This document shows positions 3,256 through 56,557 of a stretch of DNA of 64,000 bases, piece after piece. The DNA is from a virus, in IMG/VR virus record IMGVR_UViG_3300028948_000703, positions 1 to 64,000 of that record. One strand, 5' to 3'. The notes under the pieces are model-generated. The model saw only the letters and a list, made by a program, of their open reading frames with translations. It was not told where the DNA came from and ran no database searches. Position numbers and translations under genes: made by a program. Each line of letters begins with the position of its first letter. Positions within the stretch are counted from its first letter, which is position 1.

Positions 3256-3287
3256 GCTAAATATTCCTGTTACCTGGAGTTATTTAT

Positions 3288-8318: not shown

Positions 8319-9686
8319 ATGAAAATACTTGAACTATTCACCGGCAATCAATATCTCACGGAATATGATACTAAAAAGATACAGGCTCTGCAAAAACTCT
8401 TTGACCAGCGCCGCCAGGATCCATCTAGACCACCAGCACAATCCCCTGTTGATCTGGCTGCTGCCATTGAAAAGATCAAAAAACTACCTGGAGAAACGAT
8501 ATTCTGGCTGGTACATAGATATCTCAAACCCATTGACAACGAATATGGAATACGTCGCTGGGAAGATATAGCCGCCAGAGCCATTCCTGCTATTGAAAAA
8601 TTCACCGAACTAAAACGAAAACCACAGCTGGCGCCACCTTTACCCACACGTGACATCAATCAAATACCAAGTCTATCCAAGCTAGAAGATATTCTGGATG
8701 CATATAAAGAACAAGTGCAAACCAGTAAACAAGCTCAACGACAGCAGGCAGAACAGTCTTTTTATAACACAGGCCGCGCAAAATTAATATACAACGACGC
8801 AGATATTAAAGTGGTGGTTCCACGAACCCCATCGGCCAGCTGTTATTTTGGTAAAAATACTCGCTGGTGCACAGCCAGCCAAGATGACGAAGAAACGTTT
8901 TTACGCTATAACCAACAGGGTCCCTTGTATATAATATTGATAAAAAAGAAGAATGCCAGATATCAATTCCACTTTCCCAGCGACCAATTTATGGACGAAG
9001 AGGACAACACAGTTAATCCACGAGAACTAGCCAACCAGTATCCAGTTTTATGGCGGATATTTGAACCTATCAGCCGAGAAAACCACAGCATTTTACTGAT
9101 CAAAAACCCCACAGAACAAGACCGACTACGTGCAGTAGAACAAGACGGCGACGCTGTTCGATATATAGATAACCCATCTGAAGCCGTACAACTGACAGCA
9201 GTCAAACAATGGCCCAACGCTATTCAACACATAGACAACCCCAGTGAAGCAGTACAACTGGCTGCGGTTAAACATGAAGGAGTGGTGTTAATGCATCTAG
9301 ACAATCCCAGCAATGCTGTTAAACTGGCTGCTGTAAACAATGATGGATATGCCATTAAGTATATAGATAATCCCACAGAAGAGATGCAATTAGCCGCAGT
9401 AAAAAACTATGGCCCAGTGATAGAATACCTCAGTGACCCGTCTGAAGCTGTGCAATTAGCTGCTGTGCGCCAAAACTATCAGGCTATCTATTTTATTAAC
9501 AATCCTTCAGAAGCTATACAACTGGCTGCAGTAGAACACAACGGCGATGCTATACGACATCTTGAGTTCCCATCAGACCGAGTTCAATTGGCTGCTATAC
9601 AGGCATATCCACGAATCTCCAGAGAAATACCATGGAAATTCTCCCCTGCTGTCTTGGCCCAAGCAAGAGCTCAAGGCCTCATCTAA
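8319..9686 (+). CDS. Putative virion internal protein with a 'WCTAS' domain and about 7 DUF4116-like 22-aa repeats
   Basis: MKILELF..LTE start; ASCYFGKNTRWCTAS..GPLY..YQFHF domain also found in 62776-63804; tandem DNPSEAVQLAAVK repeats. Confidence 0.75.
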   Translation: MKILELFTGNQYLTEYDTKKIQALQKLFDQRRQDPSRPPAQSPVDLAAAIEKIKKLPGETIFWLVHRYLKPIDNEYGIRRWEDIAARAIPAIEKFTELKRKPQLAPPLPTRDINQIPSLSKLEDILDAYKEQVQTSKQAQRQQAEQSFYNTGRAKLIYNDADIKVVVPRTPSASCYFGKNTRWCTASQDDEETFLRYNQQGPLYIILIKKKNARYQFHFPSDQFMDEEDNTVNPRELANQYPVLWRIFEPISRENHSILLIKNPTEQDRLRAVEQDGDAVRYIDNPSEAVQLTAVKQWPNAIQHIDNPSEAVQLAAVKHEGVVLMHLDNPSNAVKLAAVNNDGYAIKYIDNPTEEMQLAAVKNYGPVIEYLSDPSEAVQLAAVRQNYQAIYFINNPSEAIQLAAVEHNGDAIRHLEFPSDRVQLAAIQAYPRISREIPWKFSPAVLAQARAQGLI

Positions 9687-9750
9687 ATAACACTTGCAAT
9701 AAGCAGTAAATCCTGCTAGTGTGAAAACATCATGCAAACGAACAGGTACT

Positions 9751-10140
9751 ATGCAGATTGATTTTCATCGACAAAGCCGATTACCACACTGGATACGCTG
9801 TGATCATGTTAGCCGCGATCAACTGATTCAGCTGGATGCTATCCCACATAGAAAATATGCCCTACAACCGGGCCCATACGTAGACGGCAGGCGCCAGGTA
9901 AAAATGAACGATTACACACTAAAACAATGGATTAAACAGTGCATGCCATACTACGCTGCAACTATAGCAGTGACCAAATCCCAGATTATCCACGAAGAAA
10001 TGCAGAGATTAAACATTGACGACTCTGAGTTTGCACTGTGGCGATATCCCAGTTTTTCTCTAAACAATACCGCGCCTTTTATTCTTCATTTTGCCACAAA
10101 AGAAAATCAAACTCTATATAAGCTATCCACATGTATATAA
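9751..10140 (+). CDS. Small-paralogue family member with an N-terminal extension
   Basis: C-terminal HFATKENQTLYKLS matches the family F-x6-7-F/Y-x-L motif. Confidence 0.65.
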   Translation: MQIDFHRQSRLPHWIRCDHVSRDQLIQLDAIPHRKYALQPGPYVDGRRQVKMNDYTLKQWIKQCMPYYAATIAVTKSQIIHEEMQRLNIDDSEFALWRYPSFSLNNTAPFILHFATKENQTLYKLSTCI

Positions 10141-10334
10141 ACCCACAATACCCATACCGAGTAATAATACCAGAACTTAACAATAATTACCTTCAAGCAC
10201 GAATTGCTGTGGATTGGTGCAAGAAGAATACCAACAACGACTGGGATTTACAGTTCTCCAACGACAATTACACAATATACTGGATGTTTAAAGACCCATG
10301 CACGGCAACAGAATTCACACTAATATTCGGATGA
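10131..10334 (+). CDS. ~70-aa paralogue family member
   Basis: YPY..AVDWC..WMFKDPCTATEFTLIFG. Confidence 0.8.
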   Translation: MYINPQYPYRVIIPELNNNYLQARIAVDWCKKNTNNDWDLQFSNDNYTIYWMFKDPCTATEFTLIFG

Positions 10335-10534
10335 GAGAACGATTCCCTTATACAGTACAAACACCAAGAAACAACTATACTCTGACAAGCTCTGCTGTAG
10401 ATTGGTGTAATAATAATGCTGGTGTAGTCTATATGGATTGGGATGCACTGTATAATCTTGATAAAGAAGACATCATAATATGGTACTTTAAATACAAATC
10501 CACTGCAACACAATTCATGCTGACATTCGGATGA
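10331..10534 (+). CDS. ~70-aa paralogue family member
   Basis: Starts at an ATGA overlap; FPY..AVDWC..WYFKYKSTATQFMLTFG. Confidence 0.8.
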   Translation: MRERFPYTVQTPRNNYTLTSSAVDWCNNNAGVVYMDWDALYNLDKEDIIIWYFKYKSTATQFMLTFG

Positions 10535-10714
10535 ACGAAAGATTCCCTTATACAGTACAAACACCAAGAAACAACCCCTCACTGCTATAGAATGTGTAAG
10601 GATAAGATTGGAATGGAATGGGATGCAATGTATTCCACAACAGACAACGACACAATAATATGGTATTTTAAAACCAAATCTGCTGCAACAGAATTGATGC
10701 TGACGTTTGGATAA
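10531..10714 (+). pseudogene. Frameshifted copy of the ~70-aa family
   Basis: The 5' ~45 nt are nearly identical to those of the 10331 gene. It stops after 19 codons, and remnants TAIE, CKDKIGMEW and WYFKTKSAATELMLTFG lie in other frames. Confidence 0.75.
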
Positions 10715-10717
10715 CCC

Positions 10718-10918
10718 GTGATCGATAACTATCCATATAAGATATCAACACCAGAACGGGACACCGATCTAACACGCACAGCAGTAAAATGGTGTGAAAC
10801 CACAGTGGGAGAACCAGATGAAGATTGGATATTGGAGTTTTCTGCAGAAGATGGGTATTTAACCTGGAGCTTTAGGGATCAATCACTGGCAACACTGTTT
10901 AAATTAACGTTTGGATAA
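10718..10918 (+). CDS. ~70-aa paralogue family member
   Basis: YPY..AVKWC..WSFRDQSLATLFKLTFG. Confidence 0.8.
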   Translation: MIDNYPYKISTPERDTDLTRTAVKWCETTVGEPDEDWILEFSAEDGYLTWSFRDQSLATLFKLTFG

Positions 10919-11002
10919 GCGCGCCAAAAAGCCAAAATTCACTGGATGGCTAAAAACCCGTGAAGGGCTGGCTGAGACCCCTAGGTGAAAAAATATACCT
11001 TT

Positions 11003-11884
11003 TTAGCCATTTCTAGCCAGTACAAACAACATATAATCACTGGAATCTGAGAATACATATACACGCTGATGACAATCCGCAAATCTACGGTCAAAGTAGT
11101 GCCATGATTTAAGATTATCTGTGCTATATAGCCACGCTAGATCTAGGTCCATATCATCTTGTATATTTGTCCATGACATACCCCATCGAGCATATTGATA
11201 GGTTTTAGTACATGCATATTCCATGATTAGCCTCTAGCTAGTACAAACGCAGCATAATCATCTAGATTATCAAAGATATATGTACGTTGATAATGATGTT
11301 CGTTTTTATTATCTACATAGTGCCATGAGATTCTAGTATCTAGGTTGTATAGCCACGCTAGATCATGGATTATTTCATCTGATATGGTTTGCCAGTTAAC
11401 AAACTTGAAATTATAGTGTCTAGTATATGTATAAGCCACAGTTACCCTCTAGCTAGTACAAACGCAGCATAATCATCTGGATTATCAAAGATATATGTAC
11501 GTTGATAATGATATTTGTCTGTGGTATCCGTATATTGCCATGAATCTCTATTATCTAGACTGTGTAGGTATGCTATATCCTTAATTGTTTCAGCTGCTAT
11601 GGTTTTCCAGGTAACAAATCTAAGAACATAGTGTCTAGTATATGTATAAGTCACAGTTAGCCTCTAGCTAGTACAAATGCTGTGTAGTCTTCAGCATGTT
11701 TAAATGTATATGTACGTTGATATCCATTACTAACAACAGTATCAGCAAAACTCCATCTATTATCAATGTTAGCCGGTGATCCTGTGTTACGTGCTATCCA
11801 GTCACAATCTTCAAACATACCCTCAAGCATCTGGCCCCAGCTACTATTACCGTTATATAGGTATATTTTGCTATACTTGTACAT
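11003..11884 (-). repeat. Four tandem paralogous genes (11003-11224, 11227-11439, 11442-11654, 11657-11884) ending ..DYxxFVLAR(N)G
   Basis: ~215-230 bp period. The 11227 and 11442 copies share near-identical 3' DNA (ctctagctagtacaaacgcagcataatcatc...). Confidence 0.9.
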
Positions 11885-11886
11885 GT

Positions 11887-12285
11887 TTAGCTGCTTGTGG
11901 GTTTCCCAGGGATCATGCCCATGGCCAGTCTAGTTTTATAGTCGTTGACATCTAGGTCAATTCTAGCAAATTCTGATTCAACTCTGCCTACATGTCCTTC
12001 AGTGTTAATTACCAAGAAAGTTGCGGGAAATTTATACCCAGAGATTAGCGAGGATTCTTCTGTGTATTCAATAACCCTGCATACATCTAACTTGAGTGAT
12101 GATCCGCCACTGTTATCAGGTACAACGACTTCAGCTATTACATAGTCTCCTACATGAGTAGTTTGACCCATGATATCTACTAGAGTGCCGGTGAATTGCG
12201 TGGAAGATCGCACTTCATTGTCGGGATCGTAACCACGGCTGGCCATCCATTTGTGCCAACTAGGAAATAGGCTTTTTTGGGTCAT
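11887..12285 (-). CDS. Hypothetical protein
   Basis: ORF tightly coupled within the operon; not a family member. Confidence 0.7.
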   Translation of the reverse strand: MTQKSLFPSWHKWMASRGYDPDNEVRSSTQFTGTLVDIMGQTTHVGDYVIAEVVVPDNSGGSSLKLDVCRVIEYTEESSLISGYKFPATFLVINTEGHVGRVESEFARIDLDVNDYKTRLAMGMIPGKPTSS

Positions 12286-13345
12286 TGATCTACTATATAC
12301 TCACTGTATCTAAGAGTAAAGTGCACAGCAGATTCTTCACAGTCAAAGTACCAAATATATCGTTGTTCGGCTAGGTCAATTTCTGTTCGTGTAAAATTGA
12401 TATTGTAGAGCACGCATTCACGTCTTATGTTGATGGCGTCAACAATTTGCAATTTGGTTACTATTCGGCGTGTCACAGTAGATTGTTCCAGACTAGTTGA
12501 AATTCCACATAAGATTCTCGATTATCAAACACTATACAAAAATAATCAGTTTCAGAGTCTATTTTTACCATGATATTTTGAGCCTTTAACCATTTTACCA
12601 AACTTTTAAGCTCTGAATATGAGAAGTCATTGATGTGTAGCTGTCTAGAGTAAACCTGGTCCCCGCAGGGGTTTTTTATAGCCATGCTAGTACAAACTCT
12701 GCTGCTGTTTCTTGTGTTTGAAATAGATAAATGATAGCATCGTGGGGTTCAGTGGATATAATTATATCCCAATCCGTACCCAGTGTGCCAACGTGTGCGC
12801 TTAGCCACCGCCATCTTTCTAATCCATGGGAGATTTGACTGTGATCAGGAGGGACTGACACTCTATAGGGAAATTTATCAAGCATTGTGCTAGACCTGGT
12901 CCCCGCAGGGGTTTTTATAGCCATGCTAGAGCAAACTCCGTGGCAGCAGCCTGGGTTTTAAAGCAATAAATCATGATATCTTCCTGCATAATCCATGACC
13001 AATCCAGTGCAAATTTACCCACATGCTCGTCTAACCATTTCCAGATCCGAGATAATTCTGGCCAATACTGTCTATAGCTCAGGTGTACTGTGCAAATAAA
13101 GGGAGATTCTGCTAGAGCCATCGCAGAGTAAACTCCACACAGTCAGCTTGATCTTTAAAAGCATATATAATAGGATCTTGATAACGATAGACGGGCAATA
13201 TATCCCAGCGGTCGCCCTGTTCACCTAGGTTTTTAAGCAGCCACAGCTCTCTTGACAGCTCACGATCCCATCCCATGGTTACACTGTAGGGATACTGCGA
13301 AACCTGGTCCCCGCAGGGGTTTTTATTTGGTGGTTTTTCTGTCAC
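12282..13345 (-). repeat. Five further ~65-80-aa paralogues (12282-12476, 12473-12685, 12676-12924, 12915-13121, 13112-13345)
   Basis: C-termini FDCEESAVHFTLRY, FDNRESYVEFQLVW, FQTQETAAEFVLAWL, FKTQAAATEFALAWL and FKDQADCVEFTLRWL. Confidence 0.8.
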
Positions 13346-13390
13346 TGTTTAAAACCTGGTCCCCGCAGGGGTTTTTATTTGGTGGTTTTT
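13300..13390 (+). repeat. 39-bp direct repeat AAACCTGGTCCCCGCAGGGGTTTTTATTTGGTGGTTTTT, two copies
   Basis: Copies at 13300-13338 and 13352-13390; the core also occurs at 12652, 12894, 54443 and 54465. Confidence 0.9.
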
Positions 13391-13587
13391 TCCAGTGCCG
13401 AGGCAGCATCAAGCTCTGATCTTACCAATTTAAGCACGGCTGAGTGCTCAAGTCGTAGACTCTCTTTGGCTAGAATGACTTGCTCTGGGTGTAGATCTAG
13501 TCCATATTCCTCAATGTGCACGATAGTTCGCTCCAGTGTGGCTAATCTCGTGATCATATCATTGATATATCGTGTGTTAGGTTTCAC
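13375..13587 (-). CDS. Hypothetical protein
   Basis: ORF directly downstream of the 13591 gene. Confidence 0.6.
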   Translation of the reverse strand: MKPNTRYINDMITRLATLERTIVHIEEYGLDLHPEQVILAKESLRLEHSAVLKLVRSELDAASALEKTTK

Positions 13588-16536: not shown

Positions 16537-16821
16537 TTAGAGCACGTGGATGCGATAGCAGTCCCGGCCGTCCGCTCGGATGCGTTGCTTGCCAAGGTTT
16601 ACAAGCTTAACCGTGTAGCCCATCTTCTCCAGCTTGCGCTTAATGGGCGTATAGAACTTCTTGTCTGCGCCCCAGAGCTTGATGCTGCGGCCGCCCGATG
16701 ACTTGAGACGATCGTTGAAGACACATGCACGGTCTCCGTACAGCTTCTTGGCTCGATCACGCACCACGAGCGAAGCAGGAACATAATAAGCCGCAGACTT
16801 AACCAGCGTGTTATCCATCAT
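16537..16821 (-). CDS. Small basic protein, paralogue of 15678-15956
   Basis: AAGGAG RBS; shared motifs as above. Confidence 0.75.
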   Translation of the reverse strand: MMDNTLVKSAAYYVPASLVVRDRAKKLYGDRACVFNDRLKSSGGRSIKLWGADKKFYTPIKRKLEKMGYTVKLVNLGKQRIRADGRDCYRIHVL

Positions 16822-16911
16822 TTACTCCTTGTTGTGTGTTAGTTCGTGGACTATAGCTGAAACCCTGTTAGGCTTCAACCAAAATACTGTTACAGCCATA
16901 ACTATTATGAA

Positions 16912-16980
16912 TATAAATATTGTGCAGTTCACGAGACGGGAATCTCCAACTGCTCTATTGCTAACAAGGAGCAACAGCTT
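16912..16980 (+). promoter_or_regulatory. Late promoter plus conserved structured leader (copy A)
   Basis: TATAAATA then GCAGTT..AACTGC-TCT-ATTGCT..AGCAA-CAGC; homologous to the leaders at 24028 and 56557. Confidence 0.75.
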
Positions 16981-17613
16981 ATGTTTAATACAAAGAAAAT
17001 CTATCATCTATATATTAAAACACATTTAACAACCGGTTTAAAATATTTAGGCCAAACATGTGCAAAAGATCCTCACAAATATAAAGGATCTGGGATATAT
17101 TGGACTAATCATTTAAAAGAACACGGCACTAACTATGCTACTGAAATACTTTTAACAACCAACAATAAAAACGATATAACAGAAAAAGGACTGTACTATA
17201 GTAACCTATGGAATGTTGTTGAAAGTTCTGAATGGGCAAACTTAAAACCAGAGATAGGAGATGGGGGCGGAAAGCCCCCAGTACAAAAAGGTAAAAGATA
17301 TTGGAACAACGGTGTTAAAAATACAATGTCTTTTAATTGTCCGGGACCAGAATGGACCCCTGGAAAGTTAACATATTGTAATAAAGAAGAGCTGTCAAAA
17401 AAACTTAGTAGATTAGCAAAAAAACGTTTAACTAAAAAGATGAGAAACTATCTTAGAAAAAAGTCAATTGAAAACGGATCAAGCCCACCAGACCAAACCG
17501 GCAAAAAGTTTTGGAATAATGGAATAGAACAGACGACTGCATTCGAGTGTCCGGGAATTGGATGGAAGCAAGGAGGACTACCGCGAAAGAAACATATATT
17601 TCGTTCTGAGTAG
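16981..17613 (+). CDS. Free-standing GIY-YIG (Seg-like) homing endonuclease
   Basis: LYIK..TGLKYLGQT..YKGSG..W catalytic motifs; WNNG..CPG..W repeats; antisense to neighbouring genes. Confidence 0.85.
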   Translation: MFNTKKIYHLYIKTHLTTGLKYLGQTCAKDPHKYKGSGIYWTNHLKEHGTNYATEILLTTNNKNDITEKGLYYSNLWNVVESSEWANLKPEIGDGGGKPPVQKGKRYWNNGVKNTMSFNCPGPEWTPGKLTYCNKEELSKKLSRLAKKRLTKKMRNYLRKKSIENGSSPPDQTGKKFWNNGIEQTTAFECPGIGWKQGGLPRKKHIFRSE

Positions 17614-17913
17614 TAAAACTAAACGCACTCTAACATCGCTGCTAGAGTGCGTCAACCAGTTTACAGCGAAGGTGGCCATCCAGTAGTTTCAGCAACCTCA
17701 ACTGCATTCAGCATGCCTTCGGGCAGAATATCAAACACGCCGCCCATGTCCTCGTCATGAATAATGCCACTCAAACAAAGTTCGGCCTCTAGATCCTCGT
17801 TTGACATCTCAGCAAAATTGGTGCGATCGCTGTCGTCCAAGTAATCAGCATCGTCTTGCATCTCGCTGAGTACTCGGATAGCATCAGTGCGTAGGAAACC
17901 AAGTTTCTCCATG

Positions 17914-23908: not shown

Positions 23909-24027
23909 TTAAGTTCTCCTTGTTAAAGTTAAACAGTGTTTACTACGCTACGCTCTAACTTTTGCGATAATAGCATAAACTGAAACTATCGCAACCAGAA
24001 ACTAAACGGTAACTTGATGATTTTGTT

Positions 24028-24096
24028 AATAAATATGTTTGCAGTTCGCGAAAGTGGCATTTCCAACTGCTCTAATGTCTAGGAAGGAACATCAGC
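24028..24096 (+). promoter_or_regulatory. Late promoter plus conserved structured leader (copy B)
   Basis: AATAAATA..GCAGTT-CGC-GAAA..TTTC-C-AACTGC-TCT..CAGC-ATG. Confidence 0.75.
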
Positions 24097-24729
24097 ATGT
24101 GTATTTACTGCGGAACTAATAATTACAGAAAAATCTACGAAAACCATTTTGGCCCAATTCCGAAAGAGCAAAACGGTAGATCGTATCATATACATCATAT
24201 AGACGGTAATCATCATAATAACAACCCGGAAAATCTCAAGGCCGTTACTATCAACGAACACTATAACATTCATTTTCAGCAAGGCGATTATTCAGCATGT
24301 CTTCGCCTGTCAGCGAGACTAAACATCGATCCTAATACTATATCGGTATTAGCATCTAATGCCAACAAAAAACGTGTAGAGCAAGGCACTCATAATTTCC
24401 TTGACAAAGAAAATGCACGAAAGCGAGCTAGACGAATAGTCAAGGAAGGGAAATGTAATTTAGTAGGCGATAAAAATCCTGTGCATAAATTAGTTGCAGA
24501 AGGAAAGCATCATTTTCAAACTCCCGAGTTTAGTAGAACTCGGGCTTTAAAGCGTGTTACACAAGGCACGCACAATTTTCTCGGAAGCAATAGTAATCAA
24601 ACGCGCCTAGCAGAAGGACGACATCCAACTCAACAAAAAAAGACCTGTGTCCATTGCGGAGTTAGTATGGGATTACCATTGTTTGCAAGATATCACGGTG
24701 ACAAATGCCGTAAATTATTAAACAACTAA
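24097..24729 (+). CDS. Free-standing HNH homing endonuclease
   Basis: YRKIYE.H.GPIP..YHIHHIDGNHHNNNPENL..EH; GTHNF repeats; C-terminal CxHC..H..C; antisense to neighbouring genes. Confidence 0.85.
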   Translation: MCIYCGTNNYRKIYENHFGPIPKEQNGRSYHIHHIDGNHHNNNPENLKAVTINEHYNIHFQQGDYSACLRLSARLNIDPNTISVLASNANKKRVEQGTHNFLDKENARKRARRIVKEGKCNLVGDKNPVHKLVAEGKHHFQTPEFSRTRALKRVTQGTHNFLGSNSNQTRLAEGRHPTQQKKTCVHCGVSMGLPLFARYHGDKCRKLLNN

Positions 24730-39089: not shown

Positions 39090-39258
39090 GATTCAGTTTA
39101 GTCGAATGCTCAGGTGGGTAAGCTCTGCAGAGCGAGGCCAACGTGCCGATAAACCTAGGGCTGTAGACTAATATGATAGGTCACCTGTCCAATATGCAGG
39201 AGATAAAGGTTTGATTCCTTTCAGCGGACTTGAGCTTTCGGCTAAACTGAATCTTTTT
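39090..39258 (+). ncRNA. Y-RNA-like / tRNA-mimic RNA
   Basis: TTGAC..TAGTAT promoter; long terminal stem containing GTCGAATG; internal D, anticodon and T arms (39157-39228); T-tract at the end. Confidence 0.65.
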
Positions 39259-42214: not shown

Positions 42215-42943
42215 CTATTTTCGACCTCTTCTCCATCCATTTATAATATATTGATCTACCAAGTTTTTATTAATCATTCTTACTTGACCATCTTTAATAA
42301 CGCACACGCTGCCTTTTTTAGATTTGCTCATTTTGAGCTTTGATTCGTCGGTATGACATGTTATATGTTTAAAAAATATACGACCCATAACCCATCCGGC
42401 TTCTAAAAAGGGCTCTACCTTACTAGGATCAATATGCTTTGTTTTTTTCTCTGCAACATTTGATATCCAAATAAGACCTTTGCGTGTCTGTGACATTTTA
42501 TCCTTAACGTGATCAGACATTTTCTTACCAACATTTGCTAACCTTACTTTTTCTATAACAGAGCTTGGTTTTTTAACACCTTTTAATGCATTACTTATTT
42601 TTTGCTTATGTTCTTGTGTTTTTGGTGCATTAATGTTAAAAACTCCTTTGATATTTCCGTTTATCCAGTCAGATCTATTCATTACATCTAGTTTACGTAG
42701 GACATTCGCTTCCCATGACAATGCTTCGTTAGCAGTATGAAATGTTCGTCTCACTTCGACGTCAAAACTATCTTTACCATATTCTTTGATTAATTCGTGT
42801 ACTTTTTTGCTTGATGTAAAGTATGTAACCCAAAATGTCGCAGGATTGGCAATGTTTCGTTTGTGTTTTGCTACTTTAACGCCATAATACCGTAGACCAG
42901 TTGGTCGATGTATAATATAGTAAGTGTAAGGAATGTAATTCAT
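42215..42943 (-). CDS. Free-standing GIY-YIG homing endonuclease with NUMOD3-like repeats
   Basis: YTY..TGLRYYG..YFTSS..E..L..N; HKQKIS, KMS and GWRRGR motifs; antisense to neighbouring genes. Confidence 0.85.
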   Translation of the reverse strand: MNYIPYTYYIIHRPTGLRYYGVKVAKHKRNIANPATFWVTYFTSSKKVHELIKEYGKDSFDVEVRRTFHTANEALSWEANVLRKLDVMNRSDWINGNIKGVFNINAPKTQEHKQKISNALKGVKKPSSVIEKVRLANVGKKMSDHVKDKMSQTRKGLIWISNVAEKKTKHIDPSKVEPFLEAGWVMGRIFFKHITCHTDESKLKMSKSKKGSVCVIKDGQVRMINKNLVDQYIINGWRRGRK

Positions 42944-43318
42944 ATGAAACCTCTTTATCATGCCCAAGCGTCCGCACGTAGATATGGTGGAACGGTAGAG
43001 TGTTATTTACCTTTGCACAATTTCTTTGACAGTTCCAAACAGTGTTTGGCGGATGTTAGGCATCGTGCTATTCTGCACTCCAGCTTTGGTATCTTTCTGC
43101 TAGAACGAGTCTTTGGAGAGTATATCACAAATTCAGCAGGTCGTCGAGTTTGTGTACGTGATATTGGCGAAGAGCATGTCATTGAGGATCTGGGCACCAT
43201 TCCCACTGTGGAAAAATGGCTGCGTAATCTGCCCATTGAAGACTGGATGACCAGCGCACGCCATAACAAGATCATCAAGACTACGCATATCAGTTTCGAT
43301 GATGTCAAGGTTGATTAA
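42944..43318 (+). CDS. DUF6915-like protein
   Basis: PLYHA.SARRYGG..Y..LH.FFD.SK..RHRAILH..GE.HV.EDLG.IP. Confidence 0.7.
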   Translation: MKPLYHAQASARRYGGTVECYLPLHNFFDSSKQCLADVRHRAILHSSFGIFLLERVFGEYITNSAGRRVCVRDIGEEHVIEDLGTIPTVEKWLRNLPIEDWMTSARHNKIIKTTHISFDDVKVD

Positions 43319-48945: not shown

Positions 48946-49403
48946 TTGCGCCTCACAGTTTGGTAAACCCGGTGGGTGCTGCCCCCACTATCCACCGCTT
49001 AAAAGGCGGTTGCTTTTGCTGCTAAGCTACGGGTTCTTTAACAACGTTCCGCTATTATACAGACTTGCCATCTAGAGTCAATTGATAGTTTATGGTTGCA
49101 TGTTATCGGTAATATGTTATGATAGCTAAAGCAACGCAAGGAGCACGTAATGAGCACCAATTCTCCACTGATGGTCGATCCTCCCGAAGGATGGCGATAT
49201 GGCTTTCCCAAGGCCTACTTTAAGAACCGTGTGGGTTCCGATCGTGAACTGCGCTCGTGGCTTCTGCACTATGGCTACCCTGCCAAAATGATCGATAGCC
49301 TTGGTCCTAAGATGCGAGGCATTCGTTTCATCGGCGGTGAATAATACGTTGACTCTTAGATAGTGTTGATATATGATAATCAGACATTAACTAGGAGTGT
49401 GAC

Positions 49404-52916: not shown

Positions 52917-53183
52917 TAGCAAGAGAGCTTTATTGGGCCCCTGTCGTTTAATTGGAATAGGACGCCGTGCTCGATTTCACTGCCTGACATGGCTATAGTA
53001 TTGATCATACCAGTGGTTGATTCTCTGTAGGTGTTGGGTAAAGATACTGTGCTGGTACACAGGAGAGCATTGGTATGCAGGTTCGAGACCTGTCAGGGGA
53101 AGCAATAAAGGTAGCCTGTGCGTGATGTAACATACAGGAGCAACTAACCCGAGGCGTCTTCACCACTACGCCTACTCTTGCTA
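52917..53183 (+). ncRNA. tRNA-shaped RNA with a ~90-nt insertion in the anticodon arm, nested in closing stems
   Basis: Acceptor CCCCTG/CAGGGG, D-arm with GG and T-arm GCAGG-TTCGAGA-CCTGT; outer stems CTTTATTG/CAATAAAG and TAGCAAGAG/CTCTTGCTA; no CCA. Confidence 0.65.
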
Positions 53184-55329: not shown

Positions 55330-55749
55330 ATGATCAGCAACGAGCAAGCAATTGACGCCATGATGTGCAGCTTCGAAAAGTACGCCGCTCTGCGTGCTGA
55401 ACTGGGCTTTCCGCTGCCCAGCAAGGTCAACAACAACCTGCTGCCGAGCTGGGTCCTGCGTGTGGGTGAGAAGCCCAAGACGGAATGGGTCATGCCTAAG
55501 CGTGCTTCGCAGCCCGTCCAGCCCGCTGCTGAGACTGCAATCGTCGAAGTCAACGCGCCCGTGCAAGTCGCTGCAGAGCCCACTGCTGCAAAGCTCGACA
55601 GCTGGGCCGCGCGTGTGCGTGCTGTGATCCGTGCAGCCAAAACGGAAGGCCAGACGCCGCAGCAGGTGCTCAAGCACGTGGTGGAAAGCATGGGCATGAA
55701 GGAAAGCAGCGCTCGCAACTGCATCAAGCACAATTGGCTTAAGGTGTGA
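55330..55749 (+). CDS. HTH-like domain protein, paralogue of 39608-40027
   Basis: Shared motifs, see the 39608 gene. Confidence 0.8.
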   Translation: MISNEQAIDAMMCSFEKYAALRAELGFPLPSKVNNNLLPSWVLRVGEKPKTEWVMPKRASQPVQPAAETAIVEVNAPVQVAAEPTAAKLDSWAARVRAVIRAAKTEGQTPQQVLKHVVESMGMKESSARNCIKHNWLKV

Positions 55750-56488
55750 GGGGAGGCGCAAGCTTCTTACACTGGGAGAAGTGATACCTAAACATAGCGG
55801 GTCCTTTTCCAAGCTTATTACAGTGAGGGCACTCATAAACACGCAAAATGTTATGAGTGCCCTCCATCATGCGTTTTTGATTCGTCTTCCTTGACACTTC
55901 ACCGCCGAGAAAATTATGCCGTCCTTCAGCTACTAGACGCCTGTGTACTTCACCGCCGAGGAGATGATGCGTGCCTTCCTCAACACGCTTCCTTTGTAAG
56001 TCGCCCCCGAGAAAGTTGTGTGTACCATCCTCGATACGCCTCTTGTTGGCCTTCTTAACGTGTTCTCCGCCCTGGAAGGGATTTGTTCCGTTTTTAACAC
56101 GTTGCCGTGCATGATCGCCTCCAACAAAGGGATGTGTACCGTTGGCTAACATCTTATATACAGGATTTCTCTCCCTAATAAAAGGATGAGTTCCGTCGTC
56201 TATGCGCTTTTTTGCGGAAAGCTTTGCTATTTTTGATTTTTCTTCCTTGCTCATACCTAGCCTGGACATCAATCGCATAGCTGCGGCCCAGTCGCCTTGG
56301 TCAAGATGTATTTGAAGATGATCCTGTATTGACACAGCTAGCAAATTGCTTATATCGTTGTTTGACGGGTCGCCATCAATGTGATGTATATCATAAGTCC
56401 GACCTTGATCGTCCTGTGGGATAGGGCCGTGATGCTGTTCATAGATTTTTCTATAGACACGTGATTGACTTCTAGCATAAGTAGTCAT
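55739..56488 (-). CDS. Free-standing HNH homing endonuclease
   Basis: YRKIYEQHHGPIP..YDIHHIDGDPSNN..NL..H; GTH(P/N)F repeats; CPHC; paralogue of the 24097 gene. Confidence 0.85.
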   Translation of the reverse strand: MTTYARSQSRVYRKIYEQHHGPIPQDDQGRTYDIHHIDGDPSNNDISNLLAVSIQDHLQIHLDQGDWAAAMRLMSRLGMSKEEKSKIAKLSAKKRIDDGTHPFIRERNPVYKMLANGTHPFVGGDHARQRVKNGTNPFQGGEHVKKANKRRIEDGTHNFLGGDLQRKRVEEGTHHLLGGEVHRRLVAEGRHNFLGGEVSRKTNQKRMMEGTHNILRVYECPHCNKLGKGPAMFRYHFSQCKKLAPPLTP

Positions 56489-56557
56489 AGCTGTTGTTCC
56501 TCTAAAACAATAGAGCGATCGGGAGTTCCACCGCCGCGGATCGCAACATTATTTATA
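56489..56557 (-). promoter_or_regulatory. Late promoter plus conserved structured leader (copy C)
   Basis: TATAAATA..GCGATC-CGC..C-GATCGC-TCT-ATTGTT..AACAA-CAGC-T-ATG. Confidence 0.75.

Follow-up and report, generated by a model that had tools for sequence, protein, structure and literature searches.

What is the short leader that three endonuclease genes of one phage have in common, and on which strand does it do its work? The window considered here, meaning the whole stretch of DNA that was analyzed, comprises 64,000 nucleotides of a 116,272-bp contig (an IMG/VR virus record with 40% G+C). An earlier note on this DNA had reported one architecture upstream of genes for unrelated homing endonucleases of the GIY-YIG and HNH families, and had read it as an undescribed, portable RNA element that acts in the endonuclease mRNA. 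CheckV put the completeness of the contig at 28%, so the phage must be large, and the big open reading frames (ORFs) of the contig have only weak relatives, which occur in jumbo phages. We conclude that the host of the cassettes is an uncultured large freshwater phage.

The cassette, its spread and the genes behind it

The window contains three copies of the leader, here called A, B and C, and all three have the architecture that had been described (Table 1). Each presents, in the same order, an ATAAATA box, a gap of about 5 nt, a bulged hairpin, the sequence TCTA, a second hairpin that contains the Shine-Dalgarno sequence, the sequence CAGC, and the ATG, with the cassette measuring about 85 bp. 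In all three window copies, TATAAATA or AATAAATA lies 4 to 5 nt 5′ of the first stem, and the box-to-stem distance is mostly 5 nt throughout the family. The Shine-Dalgarno sequence, a GGAG or GGA within the loop and 3′ arm of hairpin 2, was seen in the last hairpin of copies A, B and C, as claimed. The compensatory changes listed in the earlier note (GCAGTT/AACTGC versus GCGATC/GATCGC, and GAGA/TCTC versus GAAA/TTTC) are likewise all present, and the inner stem of copy C carries a single C·T mismatch.

Table 1. Positions of the leader copies, their predicted parts and the downstream genes in the window
Feature	Position	Strand	Remark
Leader copy A	16912-16980	+	
Copy A, late-promoter-type box TATAAATA	16912-16919	+	Its complement forms the U-rich tail that follows the antisense hairpin
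Copy A, hairpin 1	16924-16953		Outer stem of 6 bp, CAC, inner stem of 4 bp, loop of 6 nt and a bulged C; first base of stem 1 at 16924
Copy A, TCTA, hairpin 2 and CAGC	16954-16978		Hairpin 2 at 16958-16974; Shine-Dalgarno sequence AAGGAG at 16966-16971; read on the minus strand, an unbroken 8-bp helix with one G·U
ORF A, 210 aa, predicted GIY-YIG-fold endonuclease	16981-17613	+	Codons 2 to 4 without a good inward box
Cassette A as a replaceable unit	16881-17620	+	Box, leader and ORF A
Leader copy B	24028-24096	+	
Copy B, box AATAAATA	24028-24035	+	
Copy B, hairpin 1, TCTA, Shine-Dalgarno hairpin 2 and CAGC	24041-24096		Hairpin 1 at 24041-24070; first base of stem 1 at 24041
Copy B, inward box TATTTA	24102-24107	-	Codons 2 to 4; TAAATA on the minus strand, 5 nt from GCTG
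Copy B, predicted antisense RNA of about 70 nt	24027-24096	-	Ends predicted
ORF B, 210 aa, HNH_3 endonuclease	24097-24729	+	Pfam
Leader copy C	56557-56490	-	
Copy C, box TATAAATA	56550-56557	-	
Copy C, hairpin 1, TCTA, hairpin 2 and CAGC	56490-56544		Hairpin 1 at 56515-56544; first base of stem 1 at 56544, minus strand
Copy C, inward box variant	56477-56483	+	ATAAGTA on the plus strand, one mismatch to the consensus
ORF C, 249 aa, HNH_3 endonuclease	55739-56488	-	Pfam

A strict regular expression run over the 116,272-bp contig returned three true copies only, and covariance model R1, which was built from nine copies, found the same three on the contig with E values of 6e-18 to 9e-20. In IMG/VR, the strict pattern yielded six more copies. 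A looser pattern, in which all stem positions were left free, yielded at least 121 matches in at least 119 stretches of IMG/VR; among the matches listed, both stems were formed in 101 of 121, and nearly all of the listed two-stem matches had an upstream box, a Shine-Dalgarno hairpin and an ORF beginning M-x-I-Y or M-Y-L. When 596 Gb of genomes from bacteria and archaea were scanned with the same pattern, both stems were formed in one of the 120 matches. The cellular genomes thus serve as a chance control, and the element therefore belongs to phages. When R1 was run on the window plus 99 loci, at least 93 copies were found, 88 of them distinct, and R2, run on 26 other sources, added 23 copies, of which 16 were new and distinct. 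Together the two models account for at least 104 distinct copies from IMG/VR loci, among which compensatory changes are abundant, and each of five larger contigs carried between one and six copies.

Pairing was maintained in 94.9% of cells in the 88 distinct copies, a figure uncorrected for shared descent, and double changes were found at 13 of the 17 pairs. The covariation score was 0.613, compared with 0.144 after shuffling (0.613 was reached in 0 of 500 shuffles) and with at most 0.051 when partners were slid. We conclude that the layout of the three copies is confirmed far beyond chance.

Two leaders were compared by blastn with 50,697 phage records and gave chance matches only, and megablast of the locus returned nothing. 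Three phage records reached through a protein relative were searched with R1: Pseudoalteromonas phage vB_Psh_XG4 gave a single copy (E = 7.6e-9), and cyanophages S-SRM01 and S-N03 gave none. The vB_Psh_XG4 copy (L249:1413-1494, which is PP712099.1 56127-56208) is the sole one found in the record of a cultured phage, and it is divergent, having TGTA for TCTA, CACC for CAGC and no clear boxes. The record is unannotated, and the phage was named in no paper in a literature search. As to the surroundings of other copies, one cassette locus (L047) contains a permuted tmRNA gene at 1214-1601, and another (L024) contains an array of about 20 tRNA genes at 8619-13467 as well as a weak hammerhead-III match at 11662-11699 (E = 0.021, under the gathering score).

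ORFs B and C matched Pfam family HNH_3 with E values of 7e-11 (42.0 bits) and 7e-13 (48.4 bits), respectively, the cutoff being 24.8 bits, and a second search, made on the contig, bore these assignments out. For ORF A, no nuclease domain was found in Pfam or PHROGs, and a sequence and profile search of the PDB returned nothing. An AlphaFold model of ORF A had pLDDT values above 90 over residues 1 to 90, and when the N-terminal domain was used in a fold search of the PDB, the top three matches were to the GIY-YIG catalytic domain of I-TevI (probability 0.99, 0.99 and 0.89; TM score of 0.61 to 0.65 on the target; E = 0.04 to 0.24), with about 95 of 97 columns aligned. The family of ORF A has this N-terminal domain in common, and some relatives also carry NUMOD3. 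We conclude that ORF A, which the fold search alone placed, is predicted to have the GIY-YIG catalytic fold, so that both endonuclease families named for the window are represented in it.

Pfam domains in 79 distinct downstream ORFs were NUMOD3 (35), SegE_GIY-YIG (11), HNH (9), HNH_3 (7), HNH_5 (6), GIY-YIG (3) and LEM-3 GIY-YIG (2). The covariance-model search and tabulation of downstream genes that had been proposed as a check thus place GIY-YIG or HNH/NUMOD3 nucleases behind the collected copies and bear out the claim that the leader is portable and travels with unrelated endonuclease families. Ten further copies precede ORFs of fewer than 60 codons; nine of these ORFs are closed by a stop codon and are probably decayed genes, and the tenth runs off its locus. 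The two-hairpin cassette is absent at two or more other endonuclease-like genes of the contig (42215-42967, minus strand, and about 101.2-101.4 kb) and is therefore not universal. The gene at 42215-42967 encodes NUMOD3 and a seg-like N terminus and has a GTAAATA box upstream.

The cassette also appears to move as a block. In a related phage from wastewater run X3, whose DNA contigs are about 90 to 97% alike, 848 other letters stand in the place of positions 16881-17620. Other X3 contigs join the leader to different stems or, right after position 16978, to a different ORF. We conclude from these junctions that the cassette behaves as a replaceable unit and that the leader is a recombination joint.

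Outer and inner boxes, and the strand that folds

The ATAAATA sequence occurs 32 times in the contig, and 19 of the 32 occurrences lie no more than 100 nt upstream of a start on the same strand, compared with 7 that face the wrong way. Among those upstream of starts are back-to-back pairs near 3281, 7100/7125 and 8312. The late promoter of T4-like cyanophages is given as NATAAATA (PMC2984593). We conclude that ATAAATA, judged by its placement, behaves as a promoter element in the contig and that it matches the cyanophage late promoter.

A second box points inward. Of 82 copies, 57 have T[AG]TTTA 4 to 6 nt 3′ of CAGC, the distance being exactly 5 nt in 41 of them, and on the opposite strand this sequence reads as (A/G)TAAATA followed after 5 nt by GCTG, mirroring the outer ATAAATA, which is followed after 5 nt by GC. 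The inward box is made from codons 2 to 4 of the nuclease gene. In 39 of 39 distinct ORFs beginning M-x-I-Y, codon 2 ends in T whatever residue it encodes (background, 34%) and the isoleucine codon is ATT (background, 44%). In ORFs beginning M-Y-L, the spacing is kept by 1 or 2 extra nt before the ATG, and in a few copies the ATG is shifted upstream with the position of the inward box unchanged. We conclude that, as read from these codons, the inward box is evidently under selection at the nucleotide level.

Among 100 copies, with shared descent uncorrected, 74 had both boxes, 9 had only the outer box, 9 had only the inner box, and 8 had neither; both boxes are absent from G+C-richer variants. 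Convergent candidate promoters, recognized as sequence boxes, thus bracket the translation initiation region in the 74. The inner box took the variant form ATAAGTA in 13 of 77 copies (12 as A·C and 1 as G-C) and was missing in 17 of 100, copy A of the window among them. The inner box therefore appears, from its sequence, to be weaker than the outer box.

On the gene strand of the 88 distinct copies, the cells that departed from Watson-Crick pairing were A·C or C·A in 68 cases and G·T or T·G in 3, and the 16 replication copies gave 10 A·C and 1 G·U, for a total of 78 versus 4. Since an A·C on one strand is a G·U on the other, the strand antisense to the endonuclease gene is the only one on which wobbles have been tolerated. 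The mean minimum free energy of the core was -19.5 kcal/mol for the antisense strand versus -14.1 kcal/mol for the sense strand, and the antisense strand was the more stable in 97 of 100 copies. Moreover, RNAalifold analysis of an independent MAFFT alignment of 36 of the 87 distinct-core copies (every second one) gave -22.79 with 19 pairs for the antisense strand versus -15.72 with 17 pairs for the sense strand. The invariant opposition of A and C between TCTA and CAGC became, on the antisense strand, a G·U within a continuous 8-bp helix (G·U in 35 of the 36 rows), and the alternation of CGC and CAC, apparently a bulge when read on the gene strand, became either a G-C pair (27 rows) or a G·U pair (9 rows). 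When the window leaders were folded as sense RNA, they were no better folded than shuffled sequences (z scores of -0.95, +0.14 and -0.37). We conclude that the selected fold is that of the strand opposite the gene, and that this strand has the stable stem-loop of IS10-type control.

The same data bear on the interpretation that had been placed on the leader at the outset, namely, that the fold acts in the endonuclease mRNA. Were both hairpins to act there as a 5′ untranslated region (UTR) element, the 5′-terminal hairpin could stabilize the mRNA and the mask over the Shine-Dalgarno sequence could limit translation or bind a protein. Such an element would agree with the location of the Shine-Dalgarno sequence inside hairpin 2 in nearly all copies, with a predicted mRNA start at the first base of hairpin 1, and with the hairpins that mask ribosome-binding sites in endonuclease genes of T-even phages and Aeh1 (PMC3014915, PMC2988022); the mirror fold is, besides, necessarily adopted by the sense RNA to some degree. 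It is unlikely all the same, given the excess of A·C over G·U on the gene strand, the invariant A·C mismatch and the window sense leaders that fold like shuffles, and it leaves the fixed synonymous sites in codons 2 to 4 unexplained. A fold owed to the mRNAs of neighboring genes was rejected, as cassettes are not always opposite their neighbors: relative to the upstream neighbor, 45 had the same orientation, 42 the opposite orientation and 6 no neighbor, a count made with crude, greedy ORF calling, by which half of the endonuclease ORFs went undetected.

Proposed antisense control and the alternatives to it

Because the conserved fold fits the strand opposite the gene, the most likely explanation is a short antisense RNA that restrains the nuclease. 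Specifically, and with middling confidence, we propose that convergent late promoters give rise to the nuclease mRNA and to a cis-antisense RNA of about 70 nt over its leader, in the manner of RNA-IN and RNA-OUT of IS10. In T4, late transcription begins about 6 nt 3′ of the box. The two late promoters would converge at a distance of about 75 bp, such that transcription from the outer box would begin the nuclease mRNA with the first base of hairpin 1, and transcription from the inner box would begin the opposite-strand RNA at GCUG. At the 5′ end of the antisense RNA there would be a hairpin of 8 bp with a loop able to pair with the Shine-Dalgarno sequence, then an 11-bp hairpin bearing two bulged G's, and finally a U-rich tail, most often ACUUUUAU..., that is the complement of the outer box. 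The antisense RNA would be fully complementary to the mRNA leader, Shine-Dalgarno sequence included, and pairing between the two, begun by loop contacts, would lower the translation or the stability of the nuclease mRNA. We infer the firing of both boxes, the starts and ends of the RNAs and the repression by pairing.

The three window copies would suit antisense control to different degrees: copy B fits in full, with a good inward box, copy C has an inner box with one mismatch, and copy A has none. The antisense RNA may therefore not arise at every copy. Counting against the model, the inner box is variant or missing in part of the family, and the terminator scan reported below called no antisense hairpin in copy A or B. 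With two promoters that would belong to one and the same late class, the logic of their timing is, besides, not obvious. With regard to the loop contacts, a YUNR motif was found at position 1 of the hairpin 1 loop, on either strand, in 54 of 88 copies, compared with 10.4 ± 3.0 after shuffling, and the same hairpin 1 loops occur in both orientations. U-turn loops are described as typical of sense/antisense pairs, in either partner (PMC6562991).

Parts of the region were present as contigs in two metatranscriptome runs of one study, and one such RNA-library contig spans the copy B leader (23984-24194). The contigs carry neither strand nor transcript ends and may reflect DNA carry-over, and for that reason nothing is drawn from them or from the parts that they leave uncovered. 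Contigs of both runs (16742-16909) end at position 16909, 2 nt before the copy A box, possibly as an effect of assembly.

A wider form of antisense control is doubtful but consequential. The cassette might be a self-contained sense/antisense governor that is swapped among unrelated homing endonucleases at the leader, with an antisense RNA whose action extends in trans to sister or rival cassettes having matching loops. If such action in trans were true, it would mean copy-number control within a genome and cross-silencing between coinfecting phages, and selfish nucleases would then compete at the level of RNA as well.

The tail of the predicted antisense RNA is U-rich, with 7.0 U per 12 nt where the box is present and 5.6 U per 12 nt in the 16 copies without it, compared with 3.5 expected, which agrees with the antisense model. 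That the tail is U-rich even without a box raises the prospect that the antisense hairpins and tail are merely a terminator, an insulator that shields the upstream gene by stopping backward transcription from the inner box or from neighboring genes, with no regulatory pairing involved. Free-standing endonucleases must suit the transcription program of their host, a hairpin inside T4 mobE terminates transcription (PMC2988022, PMC2790892), and about half of the cassettes (42 versus 45) are opposite to the upstream neighbor, all of which an insulator would accommodate. An insulator is nonetheless improbable as the sole function: a nuisance inner box could be removed by synonymous changes and yet is fixed, neither the second, 5′ hairpin nor the YUNR loops are needed by a terminator, and a simple scan for a terminator consensus did not call the antisense hairpins of copies A and B. 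The tail opens with AC rather than with a clean run of U.

The strand bias by itself would also fit a structure in single-stranded DNA, as G·T is the mildest mismatch in DNA hairpins. Here the template strand would fold during recombination-dependent replication or homing and mark the 5′ edge of the cassette, a proposal in keeping with the leader as a recombination joint, with the exchange of cassette A as a block, and with loops in both orientations, such as might come from template switching at hairpins. We regard a DNA structure as quite unlikely, since the structured strand follows the orientation of the gene and not that of its neighbors, and since a promoter-like inner box, a U-rich tail and YUNR loops are features of RNA; moreover, we know of no step in homing that requires a hairpin. 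Nothing was found to favor the DNA end-structure that the earlier note had offered as its own alternative.

Lastly, the two 7-nt boxes, which are exact inverted complements and co-occur, might pair in a read-through transcript and mask the start codon, with late transcripts lacking the 5′ box and being translated, which is the logic of T4 gene e and I-TevI (PMC3014915), but this is highly improbable, as seven A-U pairs would give very little stability to a helix that closes a 65-nt multiloop, and as a closing helix the boxes were rejected because complementarity stops at 7 nt, with flanks pairing at chance level, and because real compensation is lacking at the variable position (A·C 12 versus G-C 1).

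Relation to known systems

Described RNA families were searched for in Rfam 15. At the gathering threshold, the whole window gave two tRNA matches, both located elsewhere; copy A, searched at E values up to 10, gave chance-level matches only (E above 2); and in eight further cassette loci, searched at E values up to 0.1, no match fell over any copy. Since neither strand matched an Rfam family, identity with a ribozyme, riboswitch or leader already described was rejected, and nothing points to the riboswitch or ribozyme that had been suggested. Nor was such a cassette described in the literature searched, including the text consulted of PMC2988022, PMC3014915 and PMC2790892. Of the original interpretation, then, portability and novelty stood, and function in the sense RNA did not.

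The controls described in the T4 literature are of three kinds: masks on the sense strand whose hairpin encloses the late promoter, repression of its own gene by I-TevI, and a terminator internal to mobE (PMC2988022, PMC3014915, PMC2790892). Like I-TevI, I-TevII, I-TevIII, segB and mobE of the T-even phages and Aeh1, the cassette genes have a late promoter of their own, here predicted, and a Shine-Dalgarno hairpin (PMC3014915, PMC2988022). In the T-even and Aeh1 masks, the promoter is inside the hairpin and late transcripts escape, as these sources describe them, whereas the box of the cassette is upstream of both hairpins. It is this position of the box that sets the cassette apart from the T-even masks, as the earlier note had maintained, and the cassette fold is, in addition, selected on the other strand.

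In IS10, RNA-OUT is a 69-nt antisense RNA over the translation start of the transposase (PMC5006887). Like IS10/Tn10 as described there, the cassette is a mobile element that encodes a DNA-cutting enzyme downstream (PMC5006887), and as predicted here, convergent promoters would flank the translation start and a stem-loop antisense RNA of about 70 nt would cover the ribosome-binding site. Unlike IS10/Tn10, the cassette has a phage host, boxes of the T4 late type and a two-hairpin RNA; that RNA would span the 5′ UTR in its entirety, and the module is common to unrelated nuclease families.

The nearest phage precedent among the sources consulted is CfrI of cyanophage S-PM2, an antisense RNA of about 225 nt, described as having no known function, opposite a homing endonuclease gene (PMC2984593). 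As would be the case for the cassette, the antisense RNA of this T4-like phage faces a homing endonuclease gene that is free-standing. Compared by description, CfrI differs in connecting the endonuclease gene with psbA, and it has not been presented as a structured module that is conserved and portable. The cassette is further reminiscent of type I toxin-antitoxin systems such as hok/Sok, in which a cis-antisense RNA, with YUNR loops in either partner, restrains a harmful product (PMC6562991). Unlike in hok/Sok, the product is a site-specific nuclease on a selfish cassette and not a small membrane peptide, and nothing indicates a postsegregational logic in the cassette. By analogy, we would class the system as cis-antisense control of a mobile element's nuclease.

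To our knowledge, restraint of free-standing homing endonucleases is known for a few T-even cases only, all of them sense-strand masks. The cassette would solve the same problem in another and much more widely distributed way, as one portable RNA module common to GIY-YIG and HNH genes across many uncultured large phages. Its strand signature is clear, and the antisense RNA of about 70 nt is a directly testable prediction. For annotation, the cassette adds a new family of structured RNA, and it may serve as a marker for endonuclease cassettes and their boundaries in phage metagenomes.

The window also differs between programs in its tRNA content. The two Rfam tRNAs lie at 39160-39225 (plus strand) and 48964-49036 (minus strand), and ARAGORN reports neither. 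On the plus strand at 53021-53101, ARAGORN, but not Rfam, called an odd tRNA whose anticodon has two bases.
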